Below are positions 2,421 to 39,319 of a DNA stretch of 64,000 bases, piece after piece; within the stretch, counting starts at the first letter, position 1, and every line of letters starts with the position of its first letter. Below the pieces are notes generated by a model, which did no database searches, had not been told where the DNA came from, and saw nothing but the letters and a program-made list of their open reading frames with translations. Source of the stretch: Shigella phage ESh16; sequence record ON528726. One strand, written 5' to 3'. The position numbers and the translations under genes were made by a program.

Positions 2421-3430
2421 TGAAAACAGTAATGAAAAGCTATTTTGGTAGTCATCTTTATGGAACTTCTACTCCAGAATCTGATGTAGATTTTAAAGAA
2501 ATCTTTGTTCCTCCTGCTCGCGATATTCTTATTGGAAATGTTAAAGAGCATATGAGTAAAAACACTAACAACACATCATCTAAAAACACTAAAGATGATA
2601 TTGACCATGAACTATACAGTCTTAAGTATTTCTTTAAATTAGCAGCAGATGGTGAAACTGTAGCATTGGATATGCTCCACACTCCACCGGAACTAGTAGT
2701 TAAATCTGATTTGCCTGATGCATGGAAGTTTATTCAAGACAACCGTTCTCGTTTTTATACGACCAACATGAAATCCTACTTAGGATATGTTCGCAAGCAA
2801 GCTTCTAAATACGGTGTTAAGGGTTCTCGTTTGGCCGCATTACGTGATGTGTTGAAAGTAGTTAATCAAATCCCTGAGCAATGGGTTGATTACCAAGAAG
2901 ACGGTTCCATTAAGCAGCGTCGAACTAAAGTTGAAGATATTAAGCATCGTCTTCCAGAGAACGAATTCTGTGAATGGGTATTCCATAATCATGAGAAAAC
3001 AGGTCCACAAACGTTCTACACTGTGTTGGGTCGTAAATATCAAACAACGCTTTCTCTTATTGAGCTTAAGCAGTCTTTGAATAAACTTGATGCTGAATAC
3101 GGCGAACGTGCTCGTAAGGCTGAAGCGAATGAGGGCATTGACTGGAAAGCTCTGAGTCATGCTTGCCGTGGTGGACTCCAACTATTGGAAATTTACAAAA
3201 CTGGTGACTTAGTCTATCCACTTCAAGACGCTCCATTTATTCTCGACGTGAAGTTGGGTAAACATCCATTTAAAACTGTTCAAGAGTTTTTGGAAGATGT
3301 GGTCGATCAAGTAGAAGCAGCATCCATTGAAGCTTCTAAGAACGGTATGCAGCAAAAAGTAGACATGTGTTTTTGGGATGACTTCCTTGAGAGGGTTTAT
3401 CTTGAAAACCATCGAAGTTATTATAAATGA
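2417..3430 (+). CDS. nucleotidyltransferase-fold protein, MNT/pol-beta type (337 aa)
   Basis: N-terminal GSHLYGTSTPESDVDF fits the GS-x9-13-DxD motif of minimal nucleotidyltransferases; followed by a terminator hairpin. Confidence 0.55.
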   Translation: MMKTVMKSYFGSHLYGTSTPESDVDFKEIFVPPARDILIGNVKEHMSKNTNNTSSKNTKDDIDHELYSLKYFFKLAADGETVALDMLHTPPELVVKSDLPDAWKFIQDNRSRFYTTNMKSYLGYVRKQASKYGVKGSRLAALRDVLKVVNQIPEQWVDYQEDGSIKQRRTKVEDIKHRLPENEFCEWVFHNHEKTGPQTFYTVLGRKYQTTLSLIELKQSLNKLDAEYGERARKAEANEGIDWKALSHACRGGLQLLEIYKTGDLVYPLQDAPFILDVKLGKHPFKTVQEFLEDVVDQVEAASIEASKNGMQQKVDMCFWDDFLERVYLENHRSYYK

Positions 3431-3433
3431 TAG

Positions 3434-3457
3434 GGAGCCTTCGGGCTCCCTTTTTTT
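3434..3457 (+). terminator. rho-independent terminator (GGGAGCC-TTCG-GGCTCCC plus T7), 5' part of promoter cassette
   Basis: Perfect 7-bp stem, UUCG loop, TTTTTTT. Confidence 0.7.
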
Positions 3458-3462
3458 ATTTC

Positions 3463-3545
3463 AAAATTTTTTCACAAAACAGTTTACAAGCATAAAGCTT
3501 TATGGTACTATACAACTATCAACTGATACGGATTTGGAGAATAAA
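3463..3545 (+). promoter_or_regulatory. early promoter plus conserved leader (PeSL-like cassette copy)
   Basis: TTTTTCACAAAACAGTTTACA, TATGGTACTATACAACTATCAACTGATACGGATTTGGAGAAT, ATG 3546. Confidence 0.6.
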
Positions 3546-4514
3546 ATGAAAACTGTAACTATCAATAAGGGTATCTACTTCGGTAAAGAAATCTCTGGAA
3601 CTTTTGAGCTTTTAGGCGAATGGTTCCCAGATAATGCTCCGGTAGATGCACAAGGAGATGGTAAAGTTTTTGTTGAAATTGACGGTAAGCGTCGCGGTGT
3701 TTGGGTTTACAAATCAGATATTTCATATGATGGTGTAAAAGTTGAAGAAGTTAAAGAATCATATGAAGATATGAAAACCCGCATTAATAAAAGATTTAAT
3801 GTTATGGGAATGATGACGAATGGTATTATTAATGGAAATATTCGTTCATTGATTATCTCTGGCGCAGCAGGTATTGGTAAAACGTATTCTTTAGATAAAG
3901 CTTTAAATAAAGCAAATGATATTGGATACATTGAATATAAAAGCATTAATGGTAAAATCTCTGGTATTGGTCTTTATGAGCAGCTTTGGAATAATCGTGA
4001 AGAGAATTCTGTACTTTTGATTGATGATGTAGATGTTTTCTCTGATATGGACATTCTTAATCTTCTAAAAGCCGCTCTGGACACTGGAGAGACCCGTAAA
4101 GTCTGCTGGAGCACTGCGTCTTCTTACTTAGAAGAAAAAGGCATTGAGCGTGAGTTTGAATTTAAAGGAACGATTGTTTTTATCACAAACGTTGACATTG
4201 ACCGCGAATTAGACCGTGGTACTAAACTTGCTCCACATTTACAAGCATTAGTGTCCCGCTCAGTTTATTTAGATTTGGGTGTTCACACTAATGAAGAAAT
4301 TATGGTCAGGGTTGAAGATGTTATTCTTTCAACTGACATGATGCAAAAGCGCGGTCTTTCTGATGAAGAAACTTATAAAGCATTATCATGGATGAAAGTT
4401 AATGTTAATCGTTTACGCAATGTTTCACTGCGTACTGCTCTTTATCTTGCTGACTTTATTATGACCGACAAAAACGGTTGGGAAGAAATTGCTGAGGTTA
4501 CTCTTCTGAAATAA
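3546..4514 (+). CDS. P-loop (AAA-like) ATPase (323 aa)
   Basis: Walker A GAAGIGKT and Walker B LLIDDVD; true ATG at 3546 after promoter cassette (track ORF from 3378 reads through the promoter). Confidence 0.6.
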   Translation: MKTVTINKGIYFGKEISGTFELLGEWFPDNAPVDAQGDGKVFVEIDGKRRGVWVYKSDISYDGVKVEEVKESYEDMKTRINKRFNVMGMMTNGIINGNIRSLIISGAAGIGKTYSLDKALNKANDIGYIEYKSINGKISGIGLYEQLWNNREENSVLLIDDVDVFSDMDILNLLKAALDTGETRKVCWSTASSYLEEKGIEREFEFKGTIVFITNVDIDRELDRGTKLAPHLQALVSRSVYLDLGVHTNEEIMVRVEDVILSTDMMQKRGLSDEETYKALSWMKVNVNRLRNVSLRTALYLADFIMTDKNGWEEIAEVTLLK

Positions 4515-32899: not shown

Positions 32900-34081
32900 A
32901 TGTCTATTGCAGATTTAAAATCCCGTTTGATTAAAGCTTCCACTTCTAAAATGACTGCTGAACTGACTACATCTAAATTCTTTAATGAAAAGGATGTAAT
33001 CCGTACAAAAATCCCAATGCTTAATATCGCTATTTCTGGTGCGATTGATGGTGGTATGCAGTCTGGTTTAACCATTTTTGCAGGTCCTTCTAAACACTTT
33101 AAATCAAATATGTCTTTGACTATGGTTGCGGCGTATTTGAACAAATATCCTGACGCGGTATGTCTATTCTATGATAGCGAATTTGGTATTACTCCTGCTT
33201 ATTTGCGATCCATGGGAGTTGACCCGGAACGAGTAATTCATACACCAATTCAGTCAGTTGAACAGCTGAAAATTGATATGGTGAATCAGCTTGAAGCTAT
33301 TGAGCGTGGTGAAAAAGTTATTGTATTCATCGACTCAATCGGTAATATGGCTTCTAAGAAAGAAACGGAAGATGCCTTGAATGAAAAATCTGTGGCAGAT
33401 ATGACTCGTGCTAAATCACTGAAGTCATTATTCCGTATTGTTACTCCTTATTTTAGTATTAAAAATATTCCATGTGTTGCGGTTAACCATACAATTGAAA
33501 CAATTGAAATGTTTAGTAAAACCGTGATGACAGGTGGTACAGGCGTAATGTATTCGGCTGATACTGTATTCATTATCGGTAAGCGCCAGATTAAAGATGG
33601 TTCTGATCTTCAGGGGTATCAATTTGTTCTAAATGTAGAAAAATCTCGTACTGTTAAAGAAAAAAGTAAATTCTTTATTGATGTTAAATTTGACGGTGGT
33701 ATCGATCCTTATTCTGGATTGTTAGATATGGCTTTAGAATTAGGATTTGTGGTAAAACCTAAAAATGGCTGGTATGCTCGTGAATTTCTTGACGAAGAAA
33801 CCGGCGAGATGATTCGCGAAGAAAAATCTTGGCGTGCAAAAGATACTAATTGCACTACATTCTGGGGTCCTTTATTTAAGCATCAACCGTTCCGAGATGC
33901 TATTAAACGTGCTTATCAGTTAGGTGCTATTGATAGTAATGAAATTGTTGAAGCTGAAGTTGATGAATTGATTAACTCAAAGGTTGAAAAATTTAAATCT
34001 CCAGAAAGTAAAAGTAAATCAGCAGCTGATTTAGAAACTGACCTAGATCAGTTAAGTGATATGGAAGAATTTAATGAATAA
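32900..34081 (+). CDS. uvsX: recombinase UvsX, RecA-like (393 aa)
   Basis: Walker A GPSKHFKS and N-terminal MSIADLKSRLIKASTSK as recalled for T4 UvsX. Confidence 0.95.
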   Translation: MSIADLKSRLIKASTSKMTAELTTSKFFNEKDVIRTKIPMLNIAISGAIDGGMQSGLTIFAGPSKHFKSNMSLTMVAAYLNKYPDAVCLFYDSEFGITPAYLRSMGVDPERVIHTPIQSVEQLKIDMVNQLEAIERGEKVIVFIDSIGNMASKKETEDALNEKSVADMTRAKSLKSLFRIVTPYFSIKNIPCVAVNHTIETIEMFSKTVMTGGTGVMYSADTVFIIGKRQIKDGSDLQGYQFVLNVEKSRTVKEKSKFFIDVKFDGGIDPYSGLLDMALELGFVVKPKNGWYAREFLDEETGEMIREEKSWRAKDTNCTTFWGPLFKHQPFRDAIKRAYQLGAIDSNEIVEAEVDELINSKVEKFKSPESKSKSAADLETDLDQLSDMEEFNE

Positions 34082-34418
34082 AGATGATTTAGATTTAGAT
34101 CTAGAAATTATCGATGAACCCCCCTCTTCGGAGGGGGAAGAAGAAAGAAAAGAACGTCTTTTTAATGAATCTCTTAAGATAATTAAATCTGCCATGGAAA
34201 ATGTTATCCAGGAGATTGTCATTAAACTAGAAGACGGTTCTACACACATTGTGTATGTGACAAAATTAGATTGGGTTGATGGAAAAGTCGTAATGGACTT
34301 TGCTGTTCTTGACCAAGAAAGAAAAGCTGAGTTAGCTCCTCATGTAGAAAAATGTATTACAATGCAACTACAAGATGCATTTAATAAAAGGTCAAAGAAA
34401 AAATTTAAATTCTTTTAA
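34074..34418 (+). CDS. 40: gp40 head vertex assembly chaperone (114 aa)
   Basis: ATG 34074 overlapping uvsX stop; acidic N-terminus; size and position as in T4. Confidence 0.7.
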   Translation: MNKDDLDLDLEIIDEPPSSEGEEERKERLFNESLKIIKSAMENVIQEIVIKLEDGSTHIVYVTKLDWVDGKVVMDFAVLDQERKAELAPHVEKCITMQLQDAFNKRSKKKFKFF

Positions 34419-34427
34419 GGAGTAAGT

Positions 34428-35855
34428 GTGGTAGAAATTATTCTTTCTCATCTCATATTTGATCAAGCTTATTTTTCAAAAGTTTGGCCATATATGGATT
34501 CAGAATATTTTGAAAGTGGTCCAGCTAAAAATACATTCAAATTAATTAAATCTCATGTTAATGAGTACCATAGCGTTCCATCTATTAATGCGTTAAATGT
34601 TGCATTAGAAAATAGTTCATTTACTGAAACAGAATATTCTGGTGTAAAAACACTTATTTCGAAACTAGCCGATTCTCCAGAAGACCACAGCTGGTTAGTA
34701 AAAGAAACAGAAAAATATGTTCAGCAAAGGGCGATGTTTAATGCTACGTCTAAAATAATTGAAATTCAAACTAATGCTGAGCTTCCTCCGGAAAAACGAA
34801 ATAAGAAAATGCCGGATGTTGGTGCTATTCCTGACATCATGCGCCAAGCATTATCAATTTCATTTGATAGTTACGTTGGTCATGATTGGATGGATGACTA
34901 CGAAGCACGTTGGCTATCTTATATGAATAAAGCTCGTAAGGTTCCATTTAAACTCAAAATTCTAAATAAAATTACTAAAGGCGGAGCTGAAACTGGAACA
35001 CTGAACGTTTTAATGGCTGGTGTTAACGTCGGTAAGTCATTAGGTCTGTGTTCATTGGCAGCAGATTATTTGCAGCTCGGACATAATGTTCTTTACATTT
35101 CCATGGAAATGGCAGAAGAAGTCTGTGCTAAGCGTATTGATGCTAATATGCTTGATGTTTCTCTTGATGACATTGATGATGGGCATATTTCTTACGCTGA
35201 ATATAAAGGAAAAATGGAAAAATGGCGTGAGAAATCTACTCTCGGCCGTTTAATCGTTAAACAGTATCCTACTGGTGGAGCAGACGCTAATACATTTCGG
35301 TCGCTTTTAAATGAATTAAAGCTCAAGAAGAATTTTGTTCCAACAATCATTATTGTTGACTATCTAGGTATTTGTAAATCTTGCCGCATCAGAGTTTATT
35401 CAGAAAATAGTTACACAACTGTTAAAGCTATCGCAGAGGAATTGCGTGCTCTGGCTGTTGAAACCGAAACTGTTCTTTGGACCGCAGCACAGGTTGGTAA
35501 GCAAGCTTGGGATTCTTCTGATGTTAACATGAGCGATATTGCAGAATCTGCCGGTCTTCCAGCAACAGCTGATTTTATGCTTGCGGTCATTGAAACCGAG
35601 GAGTTAGCAGCTGCTGAACAACAACTCATTAAGCAAATCAAATCACGATACGGTGATAAGAATAAATGGAATAAGTTTTTAATGGGTGTTCAAAAAGGAA
35701 ATCAGAAATGGGTAGAAATTGAACAAGATTCTACTCCAACTGAAGTGAACGAAGTAGCAGGTTCACAGCAGATTCAGGCTGAACAGAATCGCTATCAAAG
35801 AAACGAATCTGCTCGAGCCCAGTTAGATGCTTTGGCGAATGAATTAAAATTTTAG
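34428..35855 (+). CDS. 41: replicative DNA helicase gp41 (475 aa)
   Basis: GTG start (VEIILSHLIFDQAYFSK); Walker A GVNVGKS; DnaB-like; length as recalled. Confidence 0.95.
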   Translation: MVEIILSHLIFDQAYFSKVWPYMDSEYFESGPAKNTFKLIKSHVNEYHSVPSINALNVALENSSFTETEYSGVKTLISKLADSPEDHSWLVKETEKYVQQRAMFNATSKIIEIQTNAELPPEKRNKKMPDVGAIPDIMRQALSISFDSYVGHDWMDDYEARWLSYMNKARKVPFKLKILNKITKGGAETGTLNVLMAGVNVGKSLGLCSLAADYLQLGHNVLYISMEMAEEVCAKRIDANMLDVSLDDIDDGHISYAEYKGKMEKWREKSTLGRLIVKQYPTGGADANTFRSLLNELKLKKNFVPTIIIVDYLGICKSCRIRVYSENSYTTVKAIAEELRALAVETETVLWTAAQVGKQAWDSSDVNMSDIAESAGLPATADFMLAVIETEELAAAEQQLIKQIKSRYGDKNKWNKFLMGVQKGNQKWVEIEQDSTPTEVNEVAGSQQIQAEQNRYQRNESARAQLDALANELKF

Positions 35856-35890
35856 TTTACAAGCTGACAAGACTATGGTATAGTAGTCTT
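35855..35890 (+). promoter_or_regulatory. early promoter upstream of dmd
   Basis: GTTTAC at 35855-35860, TATGGTATAGTAG about 15 nt downstream. Confidence 0.5.
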
Positions 35891-35913
35891 GTTGGTTAAA
35901 TGAGGAGATTGTT

Positions 35914-36096
35914 ATGGAATTGGTAAAGGTAGTTTTTATGGGGTGGTTTAAGAATGAAAGCATGTTTACTAAAGAAATCACAATGATGAAAGATGACGTT
36001 CAATGGGCTACTACTCAATATGCTGAAGTTAATAAAGCGCTAGTTAAAGCTTTCATTGATGACAAGAAAGTATGTGAAGTGGATTGCCGAGGATAA
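35914..36096 (+). CDS. dmd: Dmd antitoxin, discriminator of mRNA degradation (60 aa)
   Basis: MELVKVVFMGWFKNESMFTKEITMMKDDVQWATTQYAEV as recalled for T4 Dmd; adjacent to gene 41. Confidence 0.85.
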   Translation: MELVKVVFMGWFKNESMFTKEITMMKDDVQWATTQYAEVNKALVKAFIDDKKVCEVDCRG

Positions 36097-36097
36097 T

Positions 36098-36355
36098 ATG
36101 CATATTGTTTTATTTAAACCTACTCCGTATAACGTCAGAAAAAATACTCAATTCAAAGCACTTATTGCAGATACGTGGGAATTAGTATTAGATATTCCAG
36201 CAGAAGAAAGTCCTCCATTTGGTCGAGTGGAATTTATTAAGTTTGCTGTGCGCCCTACGAAGCGACAGATTCGTCAATGCAAAAGATACTTTCGTAAAAT
36301 CGTCAAGTTAGAGAAACAGTTTGTAACATGTGATTATGCAGAAGTTTTAAAATAA
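36098..36355 (+). CDS. hypothetical basic protein (85 aa), T4 61.4 position
   Basis: ATG 36098 right after dmd stop with SD GAGGA; in-frame part of track ORF 36056. Confidence 0.4.
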   Translation: MHIVLFKPTPYNVRKNTQFKALIADTWELVLDIPAEESPPFGRVEFIKFAVRPTKRQIRQCKRYFRKIVKLEKQFVTCDYAEVLK

Positions 36356-36357
36356 CT

Positions 36358-36392
36358 GTTTACTTTTATTGGAAATTGAGATACTATATAAA
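36358..36392 (+). promoter_or_regulatory. early promoter upstream of sp
   Basis: GTTTAC at 36358-36363, GATACTATATAA -10. Confidence 0.5.
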
Positions 36393-36415
36393 CATAAACT
36401 ACTGAGGAGATTATC

Positions 36416-36709
36416 ATGAAAAAATTTATCTTTGCTACAATTTTTGCTTTATCTTCTTGTGCTGCTCAGCCTGCTATGGCGGGTTATGACAAAGATTTGT
36501 GTGAATGGTCTATGACTGCAGATCAGACTGAAGTTGAAACTCAAATTGAAGCAGATATTATGAATATCGTTGAGCGTGATCGTCCTGAAATGAAAGCTGA
36601 AGTGCAAAAACAACTTAAGTCTGGTGGTGTAATGCAGTATAATTATGTTCTGTATTGCGATAAAAACTTTAATAATAAAAATATCATCGCTGAAGTGGTA
36701 GGTGAATAA
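36416..36709 (+). CDS. sp: Spackle (Sp) periplasmic superinfection-exclusion protein (97 aa)
   Basis: Signal peptide MKKFIFATIFALSSCAAQPAMA; 97 aa; position between dmd and 61. Confidence 0.65.
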   Translation: MKKFIFATIFALSSCAAQPAMAGYDKDLCEWSMTADQTEVETQIEADIMNIVERDRPEMKAEVQKQLKSGGVMQYNYVLYCDKNFNNKNIIAEVVGE

Positions 36710-37335
36710 TGCTCTATCAAATGCACAAGTGCAAAGATACATACAAATATAAAGGTGCCAAGTGTTATATCATTAATCGTGAAAACGCGGGTCCAGGTCA
36801 TTCACATCAATCACGGTTTGTATTCGTTAAAAACAATGAAATTATAGCAGTTGCTAATTACATGCTTGTGACTAATGATGTTAATCCGGTGCCTTTTACA
36901 TATTATAATCTAATGGATTTGGCGTACGATTATAATTGGTTTAATCGTAATACTTTGGCTCATATTGAAGGTGTAGGATTTGACATCTCTTATTCTAGTT
37001 ACTCGTTGTGTCCTATGAGCCGAGCTCATAAAGAGCCTGAATATTTTTCATTTCGTCGGCGTGTAGACTTTAAACGCAGCACAGAGTATATCGGTGGAAT
37101 CTTTGTTAAAGATAATCGAATTACTCGCATTATTTATCCTTTGGGCTGTGGTCAAAAAGATATTGATGTTGATTTAGACTTTACTGAAAACATCATTAAT
37201 CATATTGCTTCTGTGTATTTTGATATTGATCACAAAATTGTAATATGTGGATATGAATTACCATCAGAAAAACAGTCTAAAGTAAATGTTTCTATTGATG
37301 ACCAAATTTTTAATGCTTTTATGAATAGAGGTTAA
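36709..37335 (+). CDS. hypothetical protein (208 aa), T4 61.2 position
   Basis: Size and synteny match T4 61.2; sequence not independently recognised. Confidence 0.45.
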   Translation: MLYQMHKCKDTYKYKGAKCYIINRENAGPGHSHQSRFVFVKNNEIIAVANYMLVTNDVNPVPFTYYNLMDLAYDYNWFNRNTLAHIEGVGFDISYSSYSLCPMSRAHKEPEYFSFRRRVDFKRSTEYIGGIFVKDNRITRIIYPLGCGQKDIDVDLDFTENIINHIASVYFDIDHKIVICGYELPSEKQSKVNVSIDDQIFNAFMNRG

Positions 37336-37336
37336 T

Positions 37337-37501
37337 ATGAAAACATATAAAGAATTTATCAAAGAAGATATGGTAGCTGGAGATTCAGGTGGTAATCCTG
37401 AAAATATCTCCACTGGAACAACGTCAGGCGCTGTAGTAAATAAAGGTCCTGAACAGATTCCTAAAAAGAAAAAAGAGGAATCTAAAGAAAAAGAAGAGTA
37501 A
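37337..37501 (+). CDS. small hypothetical protein (54 aa)
   Basis: ATG 37337 after previous stop; Lys/Glu-rich tail; below track threshold. Confidence 0.3.
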   Translation: MKTYKEFIKEDMVAGDSGGNPENISTGTTSGAVVNKGPEQIPKKKKEESKEKEE

Positions 37502-37503
37502 AA

Positions 37504-38532
37504 ATGTCATCAATACCTTGGATTGATAATGAGTTTGCATACCGTGCATTAGCTCATTTACCTAAATTCGCACAAGTAAATAATAGTTCAACTTTTAAAT
37601 TACGGTTTAGATGTCCTGTTTGTGGAGATTCAAAAACCGATCAAAATAAAGCCCGTGGATGGTATTATGGCGATAATAATGAAGGAAATATTCATTGTTA
37701 TAACTGTAACTATCATGCACCAATCGGAATATATTTAAAGGAGTTTGAACCTGATTTATATCGTGAGTATATCTTTGAAATAAGAAAAGAAAAAGGTAAA
37801 AGTCGTCCAGTAGAAAAACCTAAAGAACTTTCTAAACAACCTGAGAAGAAAATAATTAAATCTCTTCCGTCATGCATTAGACTAGATAAACTGGCGGAAG
37901 ACCATCCAATTATAAAATATGTAAAAGCTCGTTGTATTCCAAAGGATAAATGGAAATATCTTTGGTTTACAACCGAATGGCCTAAATTAGTTAATAGTAT
38001 AGCGCCAGGAACATATAAAAAGGAAATGCCCGAGCCTCGTCTTGTTATTCCAATTTATAATGCTAACGGAAAAGCCGAGTCTTTTCAAGGACGTGCATTA
38101 AAGAAAGATGCTCCTCAAAAATATATCACCATCAAAGCTTATCCTGAGGCAACAAAAATCTATGGAGTTGAACGAGTCAAAGATGGTGATGTATATGTTC
38201 TAGAAGGACCTATAGATTCACTTTTTATTGAAAATGGTATAGCTATTACGGGTGGTCAATTAGACCTAGAAATTGTTCCATTTAAAGATAGACGTGTGTG
38301 GGTTTTAGATAATGAACCTCGTCACCCTGACACTATTAAACGAATGACTAAATTAGTTGATGCAGGAGAAAGGGTTATGTTTTGGGATAAATCTCCCTGG
38401 AAATCAAAAGATGTTAATGATATGATTAGAAAGGAAGGTGCAACCCCTGAACAAATTATGGAATATATGAAAAATAATATTGCCCAAGGGTTGATGGCTA
38501 AAATGCGGCTATCTAAATATGCTAAGATTTAA
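37504..38532 (+). CDS. 61: DNA primase gp61 (342 aa)
   Basis: Zinc ribbon CPVCGDS...CYNCNYH and TOPRIM-type acidic motifs; length as recalled for T4 gp61. Confidence 0.93.
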   Translation: MSSIPWIDNEFAYRALAHLPKFAQVNNSSTFKLRFRCPVCGDSKTDQNKARGWYYGDNNEGNIHCYNCNYHAPIGIYLKEFEPDLYREYIFEIRKEKGKSRPVEKPKELSKQPEKKIIKSLPSCIRLDKLAEDHPIIKYVKARCIPKDKWKYLWFTTEWPKLVNSIAPGTYKKEMPEPRLVIPIYNANGKAESFQGRALKKDAPQKYITIKAYPEATKIYGVERVKDGDVYVLEGPIDSLFIENGIAITGGQLDLEIVPFKDRRVWVLDNEPRHPDTIKRMTKLVDAGERVMFWDKSPWKSKDVNDMIRKEGATPEQIMEYMKNNIAQGLMAKMRLSKYAKI

Positions 38533-38729
38533 ATTAACCCAACCAAAGCAAATGCTAAATCTACGAATGTATCAAGAGTAATTACTGGAATATTAACACC
38601 ATGAGCAATAGCAATTGGTGATAAAACAAAATTCCAGAGTAAAATTCCTACCATAGCAGAAATAGTAAAAGCTATACGTTTTTTATTACCTTTTATGGCA
38701 TTAACAAGTGCCATTAATTTTTGTACCAT
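38529..38729 (-). CDS. small hydrophobic membrane protein on opposite strand (66 aa)
   Basis: ATG (complement 38727-38729) 5 nt after a perfect AAGGAGG SD (complement of 38734-38740); two hydrophobic helices; stop overlaps gene 61 stop. Confidence 0.4.
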   Translation of the reverse strand: MVQKLMALVNAIKGNKKRIAFTISAMVGILLWNFVLSPIAIAHGVNIPVITLDTFVDLAFALVGLI

Positions 38730-38741
38730 ATGTCCTCCTTA

Positions 38742-38766
38742 TTGCTTTATATATTTATTGTATAAT
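38742..38766 (+). promoter_or_regulatory. candidate MotA-dependent middle promoter for gene 56
   Basis: TTGCTTTA MotA-box-like at 38742-38749, 11 nt spacer, TATAAT at 38761-38766. Confidence 0.45.
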
Positions 38767-38800
38767 TAATCTACTAACCCATGAATTGAAAGGAAAAATA

Positions 38801-39319
38801 ATGGCTTACTTTAATGAATGTAGTCAACTGATTGAAGGCGCTGATAAAGCTCAAAATGAATACTGGGATATTCTCGGTGATGAAAAAGATCCGTTGCAAG
38901 TTATGCTTGATATGCAGAAATCTCTGCAGGTTCGTTTAGCTAAAGATAAACCTGAATATAACCGTCATCCTGATGATTTGGCTACTGCAGGTGAAGTTGT
39001 TGATTGGCTGCGTAATCAGAAAGATTATATTGATGATGAATTCCGCGAACTTCTGACTTCTCTTGGTGGTATGAGCAATGGCGAAAAAGATGCATCTGCT
39101 GTATGGAAGCCTTGGAAGTCGCAACACGGTGAACGTCGTGAAACTCTGATTACTGACTTATCTCCACAAGACCAGTTGGAAATTAAATTCGAAATGATTG
39201 ATATTCTTCATTTCGTTCTGAACATGTTCCAAGGTCTCGGTCTTACGGCTGAAGAAATCTTTAAACTTTATTATCTGAAAAATGCTGAAAACTTCGCTCG
39301 TCAAGACCGAGGTTATTGA
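38801..39319 (+). CDS. 56: dCTPase/dUTPase gp56 (172 aa)
   Basis: ATG 38801 after SD GGAAAAATA; MazG-like NTP-pyrophosphatase sequence as recalled for T4 gp56 (track ORF extends upstream). Confidence 0.8.
   Translation: MAYFNECSQLIEGADKAQNEYWDILGDEKDPLQVMLDMQKSLQVRLAKDKPEYNRHPDDLATAGEVVDWLRNQKDYIDDEFRELLTSLGGMSNGEKDASAVWKPWKSQHGERRETLITDLSPQDQLEIKFEMIDILHFVLNMFQGLGLTAEEIFKLYYLKNAENFARQDRGY

Follow-up and report, generated by a model that had tools for sequence, protein, structure and literature searches.

Gene content and transcription of the gene 41–gene 61 interval

The interval between the helicase gene 41 (34428-35855, product 99.6% identical to T4 gp41) and the primase gene 61 (37504-38532, product 97.7% identical to that of T4) of Shigella phage ESh16 harbors five small genes, all on the plus strand of the 64,000 nt stretch that we analyzed (hereafter, the window). 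A preliminary description of this DNA had listed five small genes here, and each was recovered as an open reading frame with matching coordinates and length. In order, they are dmd (35914-36096, 60 aa), tifA or 61.4 (36098-36355, 85 aa from its ATG), sp or 61.3, encoding Spackle (36416-36709, 97 aa), adfA or 61.2 (36709-37335, 208 aa) and 61.1 (37337-37501, 54 aa). A single nucleotide separates dmd from tifA and adfA from 61.1, two nucleotides separate 61.1 from gene 61, and sp and adfA overlap as TAATG. Only two intergenic gaps, of 58 and 60 nt, are left in the interval, and promoter-like sites were found in both. Minus-strand open reading frames in the same region (e.g. 36449-36742, 97 aa) were discarded as artefacts, being mirror frames of conserved genes on the plus strand.

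The stretch is Tequatrovirus DNA. It is 100% identical in this region to Shigella phage ESh34, and the island matches approximately 390 Tequatrovirus records at 95-99% nucleotide identity. The five encoded proteins are, in gene order, 100, 98.8, 97.9, 95.2 and 96.3% identical to their T4 counterparts.

The gap upstream of dmd contains an early promoter of the dmd-tifA operon on the plus strand (35856..35884, TTTACA-17-TATAGT with an extended -10 TG), which scored 10/12 with TG in the promoter scan. Its hexamers are the same as in T4, with a single substitution further downstream. A second promoter-like site on the plus strand, 5' of sp (36359..36393, GTTTAC-N17-TACTAT), was read directly from the sequence; it was absent from the promoter-scan list because it reaches only 8/12 relative to the sigma-70 consensus. 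The intergenic region in which it lies is 70/71 identical to T4. The expectation that dmd and sp each have a promoter of their own agrees with the promoter-like sites scoring 10/12 and 8/12, and both promoters have been reported for T4, where an early promoter drives dmd-61.4 and another promoter is mentioned downstream of tifA (PMC9391042). In T4, dmd, tifA, sp and adfA fall in the early class at both RNA and protein level (PMC9697503 supplement). The RNA of T4 61.1 is also classified as early, and gp61.1 is not among the quantified proteins of the time-course proteome (PMC9697503). No late-promoter TATAAATA was found within 34000-38600. A first unit would run from the early promoter through dmd and tifA, with both products predicted to neutralize host toxin-antitoxin RNases, and a second would run from the sp promoter through sp, adfA and 61.1 into gene 61.

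Overall, the interval is very probably a standard T4-type early-gene cluster with two early transcription units and T4-like alleles. This assignment is based on identity to T4, diagnostic residues and the architecture of genes and promoters, while the activities given below are carried over by identity from experiments performed with T4 and RB69.

Dmd, TifA, AdfA and Spackle

The first gene of the island, already named dmd in the preliminary description, encodes a protein identical to T4 Dmd at 60/60 positions. It matches Pfam PF17587 over residues 1-60 of 60 (156.9 bits, cutoff 27) and the PDB chain 5hy3_B, 'Antitoxin Dmd' (E 1.8e-37), and a solved Dmd-RnlA structure exists. Dmd would act as a surrogate antitoxin that binds and inhibits endoribonuclease toxins of the RnlA/LsoA type; given the 100% identity to T4, we infer that it neutralizes them during infection.

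The second product was described as a basic protein at the 61.4 position and, tentatively, as the ToxN inhibitor TifA. Both attributions hold: its pI is 9.8, it differs from T4 TifA only by I83V (84/85 identical), it matches Pfam DUF7279 (72.7 bits, cutoff 24.5), and 61.4 is tifA in the literature (PMC9391042). The gene lies directly 3' of dmd in the same operon. The mechanism of TifA and the central basic cluster with which it binds RNA have been described (PMC10853763); the RNA-binding residues K55, R56 and R59 are invariant across our alignment with T4 and RB69. Residue 41 is Phe, as in the T4-type, weaker ToxN binder (alignment; PMC10853763). TifA would bind ToxN and RNA, chiefly 16S rRNA, and so sequester ToxN from phage transcripts. 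T4-type TifA overcomes toxIN at the chromosomal level only, not toxIN carried on a plasmid (PMC9391042).

The 208-aa product had likewise been tentatively linked to the anti-DarT factor AdfA, in agreement with published work (PMC9391042, PMC11257639). It is 198/208 identical to T4 gp61.2, some of the 10 substitutions being clustered at residues 80-84, and it matches the Pfam AdfA family PF23813 over residues 1-208 (443.7 bits, cutoff 27, E 1e-133). The protein comparison that the preliminary description had proposed as a check on 61.4 and 61.2, with a lack of similarity counting against these names, was therefore positive for both. AdfA is predicted to bind the DNA ADP-ribosyltransferase toxin DarT1. 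Its His165 aligns to R164 of RB69, a site at which His permits DarT1 binding and neutralization (PMC11257639). Deletion of adfA from T4 nevertheless gave no phenotype on DarTG1 (PMC11257639), because AdfN (gene 30.3, outside the window) does that job.

Spackle is 95/97 identical to the T4 protein (changes A13S and K53E) and matches Pfam T4_Spackle (PF25676, 152 bits); PDB entry 6x6o covers its full length. The signal peptide noted earlier is supported, since the solved mature chain (7cn6) begins at residue 23, after ...AMA. Spackle would be exported to the periplasm and block the gp5 tail lysozyme of later-arriving phage. Inhibiting the tail lysozyme of a superinfecting phage is a matter of phage-versus-phage exclusion, and Spackle is a superinfection-exclusion factor, outside the counter-defence label.

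The T4-like alleles, namely Phe41 of TifA and the His of AdfA at the RB69-164 position, lead us to predict T4-like phenotypes. We predict that the phage is resistant to RnlAB/LsoAB and that it escapes toxIN at chromosomal but not at plasmid level. Its AdfA would be able to bind DarT1, and AdfN probably makes it redundant. The allele states thus permit host-range predictions for this phage.

Relation to known loci and to the anti-TA island

The locus is the dmd-tifA-sp-adfA-61.1 locus of T4, with the same order, strand, spacing and promoters and with proteins that are 95-100% identical, including F41, K55, R56 and R59 of TifA and the His of AdfA. It differs from T4 by 15 amino-acid substitutions over the five proteins, 10 of the 15 in AdfA, and by no structural change. 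The 41-61 interval of RB69 (Mosigvirus) contains the same five genes in the same order but also has two additional open reading frames before dmd, the genes imm.1 and imm inserted between tifA and sp, and two more open reading frames after adfA. Of this last pair, ORF032c is in fact the N-terminal part of 61.1, split off as a separate frame. The TifA of RB69 shares 57% identity, ends 15 residues earlier at its C-terminus and carries H41, the stronger ToxN inhibitor, whereas RB69 AdfA is 69% identical and has R164, the non-neutralizing state.

The preliminary description had proposed that the five genes form an anti-defence micro-island. This is true of dmd, tifA and adfA, which lie within 1.4 kb of each other in a variable region of the genome; the content of the 41-61 interval differs among T2, RB69, CC31, Potts1 and AS4. 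It does not extend to every member, as Spackle acts in superinfection exclusion and 61.1 adjoins the primase gene in each T4-like genome examined. The island finding is already known, since Srikant et al. 2022 (eLife 11:e79549, PMC9391042) explicitly described this region as a possible 'anti-TA island' and flagged the other genes there as candidates. The finding re-identifies a well-studied T4 locus, with Dmd, TifA, AdfA, Spackle and the island character all published, and its stakes are correspondingly low. Its practical value lies in annotation: most GenBank records of such phages call tifA and adfA 'hypothetical protein'.

gp61.1 starts with a CTS-like decapeptide and resembles part of gp23

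The last gene of the island encodes a protein 52/54 identical to T4 gp61.1 that matches phrog_1823. [quoted passage not shown] Positions 4 and 7 of the CTS are important for targeting and positions 8 and 10 for processing (PMC9026906), and gp61.1 keeps Y4, F7, I8 and E10. Among 1639 Met-started decapeptides in the window, that of gp61.1 alone reached at least 6/10 CTS identity, and none did so in 20 shuffles.

Residues 2-38 of gp61.1 are homologous to gp23 residues 57-93 (BLASTP E 1e-8), with E10 aligned to E65, the P1 residue of the gp23 maturation cleavage; the P1' residue is Asp, not Ala. When the gp61.1 family profile was searched against PDB, gp23 was the sole match (E 2e-6). The homology to gp23 also received a probability of 94% from hhalign. 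Residues 50-102 of T4 gp23 comprise the end of the propeptide, the E65/A66 cleavage site and the N-arm/N-fist of gp23*. In contrast to gp23, gp61.1 is without the entire HK97-fold body and ends in its Lys/Glu-rich tail. The T4 proteins IPII/IPIII bear a CTS, are processed by the prohead protease gp21 and are injected, and gp61.1 has the same I-x-E cleavage motif. Unlike them, it has a predicted mature part of only 44 residues that is conserved, not hypervariable, and gp23 N-arm-like, and its RNA is classified as early only.

The T4-type gp61.1 is a shortened version of a family of approximately 155 aa (298 clusters), and almost all of the homologues that we inspected, short and long, carry a hydrophobic-x-E motif ahead of the conserved core. 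The 35-residue core is conserved across genera at the amino-acid level (tblastn, 1396 phage records, 45-100% identity), and some of its Gly, Asp and Pro residues are invariant. In the long form, the N-terminal domain is one that occurs in approximately 1,800 representative phage protein clusters, usually at the N-terminus of proteins whose C-termini are unrelated. The neighbors of relatives of this domain in marine viral contigs include TubZ, an ATP-grasp protein, a gp5 OB domain and HNH endonucleases, which is uninformative for head association. In scans up to E = 10, neither gp61.1 nor its long relatives matched a Pfam or NCBIfam family. A literature search for gp61.1 function returned nothing relevant, the term '61.1' being swamped by numerical matches, and the protein is not mentioned in Petrov 2010 or in the T4/SPN3US head mass-spectrometry paper.

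In six of six other T4-like genomes (T2, RB69, CC31, Klebsiella Potts1, Aeromonas AS4 and Acinetobacter Ac42), 61.1 adjoins the primase gene. This constancy in all examined genomes makes it look unlike variable counter-defence cargo. The ribosome-binding region of gene 61 lies inside the 3' end of 61.1.

Possible roles of gp61.1

Judging from these likenesses, gp61.1 may be a head protein and not a counter-defence factor, an account that we consider possible rather than probable: its CTS-like N-terminus would bring it into the prohead core, gp21 would cut after Glu10, and the 44-residue peptide would be kept in the capsid and may exit along with the DNA, as the internal proteins IPI-III do. 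Such a cut would create the N-terminus of the semi-tryptic peptide DMVAGDSGGNPENIS(T/I)GTTSGAVVNK. The decapeptide is consistent with this account in conserving all targeting and processing positions and in standing alone in the window, as is the alignment of E10 with the gp23 cleavage site and the recurrence of hydrophobic-x-E before the core in nearly all homologues inspected. Moreover, the gp23 segment in question is believed to point toward the scaffolding core before the prohead expands (PMC9546572). On the other hand, T4 61.1 RNA is classified as early and the interval offers no late-promoter TATAAATA, Asp takes the place of Ala at P1', and the mature part is highly conserved whereas the internal proteins are hypervariable. 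Our literature search turned up no paper that places gp61.1 in T4 heads, and a synteny with the primase gene this strict could instead indicate a role linked to replication. That same synteny, with 61.1 always directly upstream of gene 61 in the genomes examined and its stop codon 2 nt from the ATG of gene 61, around a ribosome-binding region embedded in 61.1, would also suit a gene serving mainly as a translational-coupling leader or a remnant. The T4-type protein, shorter than its family of approximately 155 aa, would then be a truncated relic of an ancestral gene of that length, with little function of its own. We find this unlikely, as the conservation of the core across genera and its invariant Gly, Asp and Pro argue for selection on the gp61.1 peptide itself.

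The location of 61.1 within the published anti-TA island, where Srikant et al. flagged the other genes of the region, raises a further interpretation, that gp61.1 is another counter-defence factor. Made early as a decoy for the N-terminal part of gp23 or for gp21 cleavage sites, it would weaken the sensing of capsid protein or of prohead-protease activity by the host. It mimics a gp23 segment and bears an I-x-E gp21 site, and among known host systems Lit/Gol senses gp23 and CBASS senses gp21 protease activity (PMC12991175). However, we consider a decoy very improbable. Conservation over phages of Acinetobacter, Aeromonas and Klebsiella argues against a host-specific arms-race gene. The Gol determinant of gp23, the trigger of Lit, presumably lies C-terminal to the segment matched by gp61.1, which also speaks against a decoy; an overlap of gp61.1 with the Gol peptide was set aside solely because of this presumed position.

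Returning to the head, a more inclusive formulation covers the relatives as well: gp61.1 would be an unrecognised head-internal peptide that enters the head by a CTS-like sequence or, in most relatives, by a propeptide domain of approximately 100 residues, and that is cut by gp21 at the conserved hydrophobic-x-E site and then retained or ejected. We regard it as possible but less likely than not. As far as we could find, the idea of a capsid-targeted, gp23-like gp61.1 is new in the literature, unlike the island itself. If it is true, gp61.1 is an added conserved component of the T4 head. The distribution of the long-form N-terminal domain is what a widespread module that delivers diverse cargo to capsids would show, and gp61.1 might then define a general propeptide module by which phages load cargo into their capsids.

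Five small genes between the helicase and primase genes

All five small genes that the preliminary description had placed between the DnaB-type helicase gene 41 (34428-35855, 475 aa) and the primase gene 61 (37504-38532, 342 aa) were found as plus-strand ORFs: dmd (35914-36096, 60 aa), tifA or 61.4 (36098-36355, 85 aa counted from the ATG, the mechanical ORF beginning earlier at a TTG), sp, encoding Spackle (36416-36709, 97 aa), adfA or 61.2 (36709-37335, 208 aa) and 61.1 (37337-37501, 54 aa). Pfam scores were far over the curated cutoffs for Dmd (156.9 bits), TifA (DUF7279, 72.7 bits), Spackle (T4_Spackle, 152 bits) and AdfA (AdfA, 443.7 bits). PHROGs assignments were consistent with these, and 61.1 fell in phrog_1823 (unknown function). 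Gene-by-gene protein alignment with the annotated T4 locus showed Dmd to be unchanged (60/60), with near identity for TifA (84/85, I83V), Spackle (95/97, A13S and K53E), AdfA (198/208, some of the 10 substitutions clustered at 80-84) and gp61.1 (52/54, F4Y and I26T), as well as for the flanking gp41 (99.6%) and gp61 (97.7%). Structures have been solved for Dmd (5hy3, chain labelled 'Antitoxin Dmd') and for Spackle (6x6o, 7cn6), whose mature chain starts at residue 23, bearing out the proposed signal peptide. A PDB match search found none for TifA or AdfA.

The genes form two units, each preceded by a gap of approximately 60 nt. The first consists of dmd and tifA, separated by 1 nt; the second of sp, adfA, 61.1 and 61, in which sp and adfA overlap at TAATG, 1 nt separates adfA from 61.1 and 2 nt separate 61.1 from 61. 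Upstream of dmd, a promoter scan detected TTTACA-17-TATAGT with an extended -10, the hexamers being the same as in T4. The gap before sp (70/71 identical to T4) contains GTTTAC-N17-TACTAT, which the scan passed over because it matches the sigma-70 consensus at only 8 of 12 positions. The T4 genes dmd, 61.4, sp and 61.2 belong to the early class for both RNA and protein (PMC9697503 supplement).

Relatives and genomic surroundings

When 35800-37600 was compared by megablast with 50,697 phage genomes, 653 records matched, nearly all of them Tequatrovirus phages that infect Escherichia, Shigella or Yersinia; the window is therefore evidently from a T4-type phage, in the opposite orientation to the T4 map. 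Only Shigella phage ESh34, whose record has no feature annotated under this stretch, is 100% identical, while 392 records fall at 95-99%. Among the matches listed, tifA and adfA are still named 'hypothetical protein' in most deposited Tequatrovirus genomes. The island of Escherichia phage vB_Eco_TB37 (OZ035850.1, 17168-19326) matched in two pieces over 2,159 bp for a query of 1,801 bp, an insertion of approximately 360 bp relative to the window and possibly an extra small gene. A TifA identical to that of the window was also found under the name Pseudomonas phage vB_PSGBLB0006; the host of that record looks misassigned, or the sequence a contaminant.

Downstream, a 66-aa hydrophobic ORF (phrog_2024; 38529-38729, minus strand) converges on gene 61, with a 4-nt overlap at the gene 61 stop codon. 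T2 has a conserved copy, RB69 (ORF029w) and Klebsiella phage Potts1 have ORFs of equal size in the corresponding place, and T4 carries an intact, unannotated copy in the 61-dam gap. By tblastn, no homologues of T4 dam, segA or beta-glucosyltransferase were detectable in the whole 64-kb window, and gene 56 comes almost directly after gene 61 (38533-39319); near the island, this phage thus differs from T4 in its cargo of DNA-modification and homing-endonuclease genes.

Anti-defence functions of the island

The preliminary description had linked the 61.2 position to an anti-DarT factor and, possibly, the 61.4 position to a ToxN inhibitor. Both assignments held, given the identities to T4 and, for AdfA, the Pfam score (PMC9391042, PMC11257639). 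Srikant et al. 2022, who renamed 61.4 as tifA, traced ToxN neutralisation to the encoded protein rather than to the RNA, found that an early promoter ahead of dmd drives a transcript shared by dmd and tifA, and reported that native levels overcome chromosomal but not plasmid toxIN (PMC9391042). TifA forms a large RNP in which it binds ToxN as well as RNA, mostly 16S rRNA; RNA binding requires K55, R56 and R59, and residue 41 sets ToxN binding, which is weak with F (T4) and stronger with S or H (Guegler et al. 2023, PMC10853763). The window's TifA aligns with F41, K55, R56, R59 and the T4-type C-terminal extension. AdfA with His at RB69 position 164 binds and neutralises DarT1, whereas RB69's Arg does not; deletion of adfA from T4 gives no DarTG1 phenotype, since gene 30.3 (AdfN) does that job (PMC11257639). 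Here His165 aligns with RB69 R164. From these alleles we predict T4-like phenotypes for this phage.

The proposal of an anti-defence micro-island stands for dmd, tifA and adfA, three of five genes, which are validated anti-toxin factors, and the interval is plastic: an 118-aa ORF replaces adfA in T2, imm.1, imm and four more ORFs are inserted in RB69, CC31 and Potts1 carry other small ORFs, and Aeromonas phage AS4 has 61.1 only. It does not extend to Spackle, which acts in superinfection exclusion, or to gp61.1, which behaves differently. The observation is thus confirmed and its interpretation supported, but the finding is already known, as the island idea has been published. T2 is reputed to be without adfA; the ORF in that slot (phrog_4122; 3643-3999 of the T2 locus) matches window 37033-37332 by tblastn (34% identity, E 1e-6) and phrog_3781 (E 1.5e-6), and is distantly homologous to AdfA over the C-terminal half of that protein.

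gp61.1 resembles the gp23 cleavage junction and the capsid-targeting sequence

By tblastn, gp61.1 matched 1,396 phage records, including Klebsiella, Acinetobacter and Aeromonas phages, compared with 519 for AdfA and 675 for TifA, and it lies directly upstream of the primase gene in all 6 other T4-like genomes examined. Automatic annotation labels some orthologues 'major capsid domain-containing protein', and one match is located within gene 23 of Acinetobacter phage 133. BLASTP aligned gp61.1 residues 2-38 with T4 gp23 residues 57-93 (43% identity, E 1e-8) and gp61.1 with phage 133 gp23 (45%, E 6e-11). A profile of 34 long 61.1 homologues, searched against the whole PDB sequence set, matched gp23 alone (residues 50-102, E 2e-6), and hhalign gave a probability of 94%. 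By these alignments, residues 2-38 are homologous with the gp21 cleavage junction and N-arm of gp23. Glu10 lines up with Glu65 of gp23, which occupies P1 in the maturation cleavage by gp21; PDB gp23* chains are 456 residues long, so mature gp23* begins at A66.

The first ten residues, MKTYKEFIKE, are identical at 8 positions to the T4 IPII/IPIII capsid-targeting sequence (CTS) MKTYQEFIAE, which we checked by translating the T4 genes (25/30 nt identical in DNA). All four positions reported as critical, 4 and 7 for targeting and 8 and 10 for processing (PMC9026906), are kept. Six-frame translation of the window gave 1,639 decapeptides starting with Met, of which only that of gp61.1 reached a CTS identity of at least 6/10; none did in twenty shuffles.

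The commonest 61.1 form is approximately 155 aa (298 clusters), with a conserved helical N-domain of about 100 residues, a hydrophobic-x-E motif, a conserved core, M(V/I)AGDxGGxxxNIAxGTTTGAxxNxGP, and a basic tail. T4-type gp61.1 is thus a shortened derivative, with a 10-residue CTS-like tag in place of the N-domain. An AlphaFold model of the long form was moderately confident for the N-domain (pLDDT 72-84) and disordered in the gp23-like core, in agreement with the gp23* N-terminus, which is disordered in unexpanded proheads and thought to touch the scaffolding core (PMC9546572). Exhaustive profile searching placed the N-domain module (phrog_2086 / phrog_18642) in 1,796 representative clusters, and most of the 150 matches listed (P0138-P0286) involved the N-domain alone, lying N-terminally in proteins of 160-470 aa. 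The C-termini of ten checked were unrelated and without convincing Pfam match. The N-domain is a widespread, unnamed phage module. One protein (P0147, 251 aa) has the complete 61.1 core plus an additional domain of approximately 100 residues. In RB69 (3318-3784 of its locus, minus strand), gp61.1 as annotated (92 aa) and RB69ORF032c upstream of it (63 aa, 96% identical to the N-terminus of JM10 61.1, P0033) jointly correspond to one intact 61.1 of approximately 155 aa in relatives such as phage JM10, the break being a frameshift, sequencing error or genuine split.

Possible roles of gp61.1

T-even internal proteins are diverse defence proteins with only the CTS in common (Rao and Black, PMC3012670). 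Our best reading, held tentatively, is that gp61.1 may be a prohead-targeted, gp21-processed peptide. Against packaging, T4 61.1 RNA is classed early and the protein was not quantified (PMC9697503 supplement), there is no late promoter near 61.1, and we found no report in the literature of gp61.1 in heads. Rival readings would make gp61.1 a translational-coupling remnant for gene 61 or a decoy for defences that sense capsid or protease. A prohead-targeted gp61.1 is a modest but directly testable lead.
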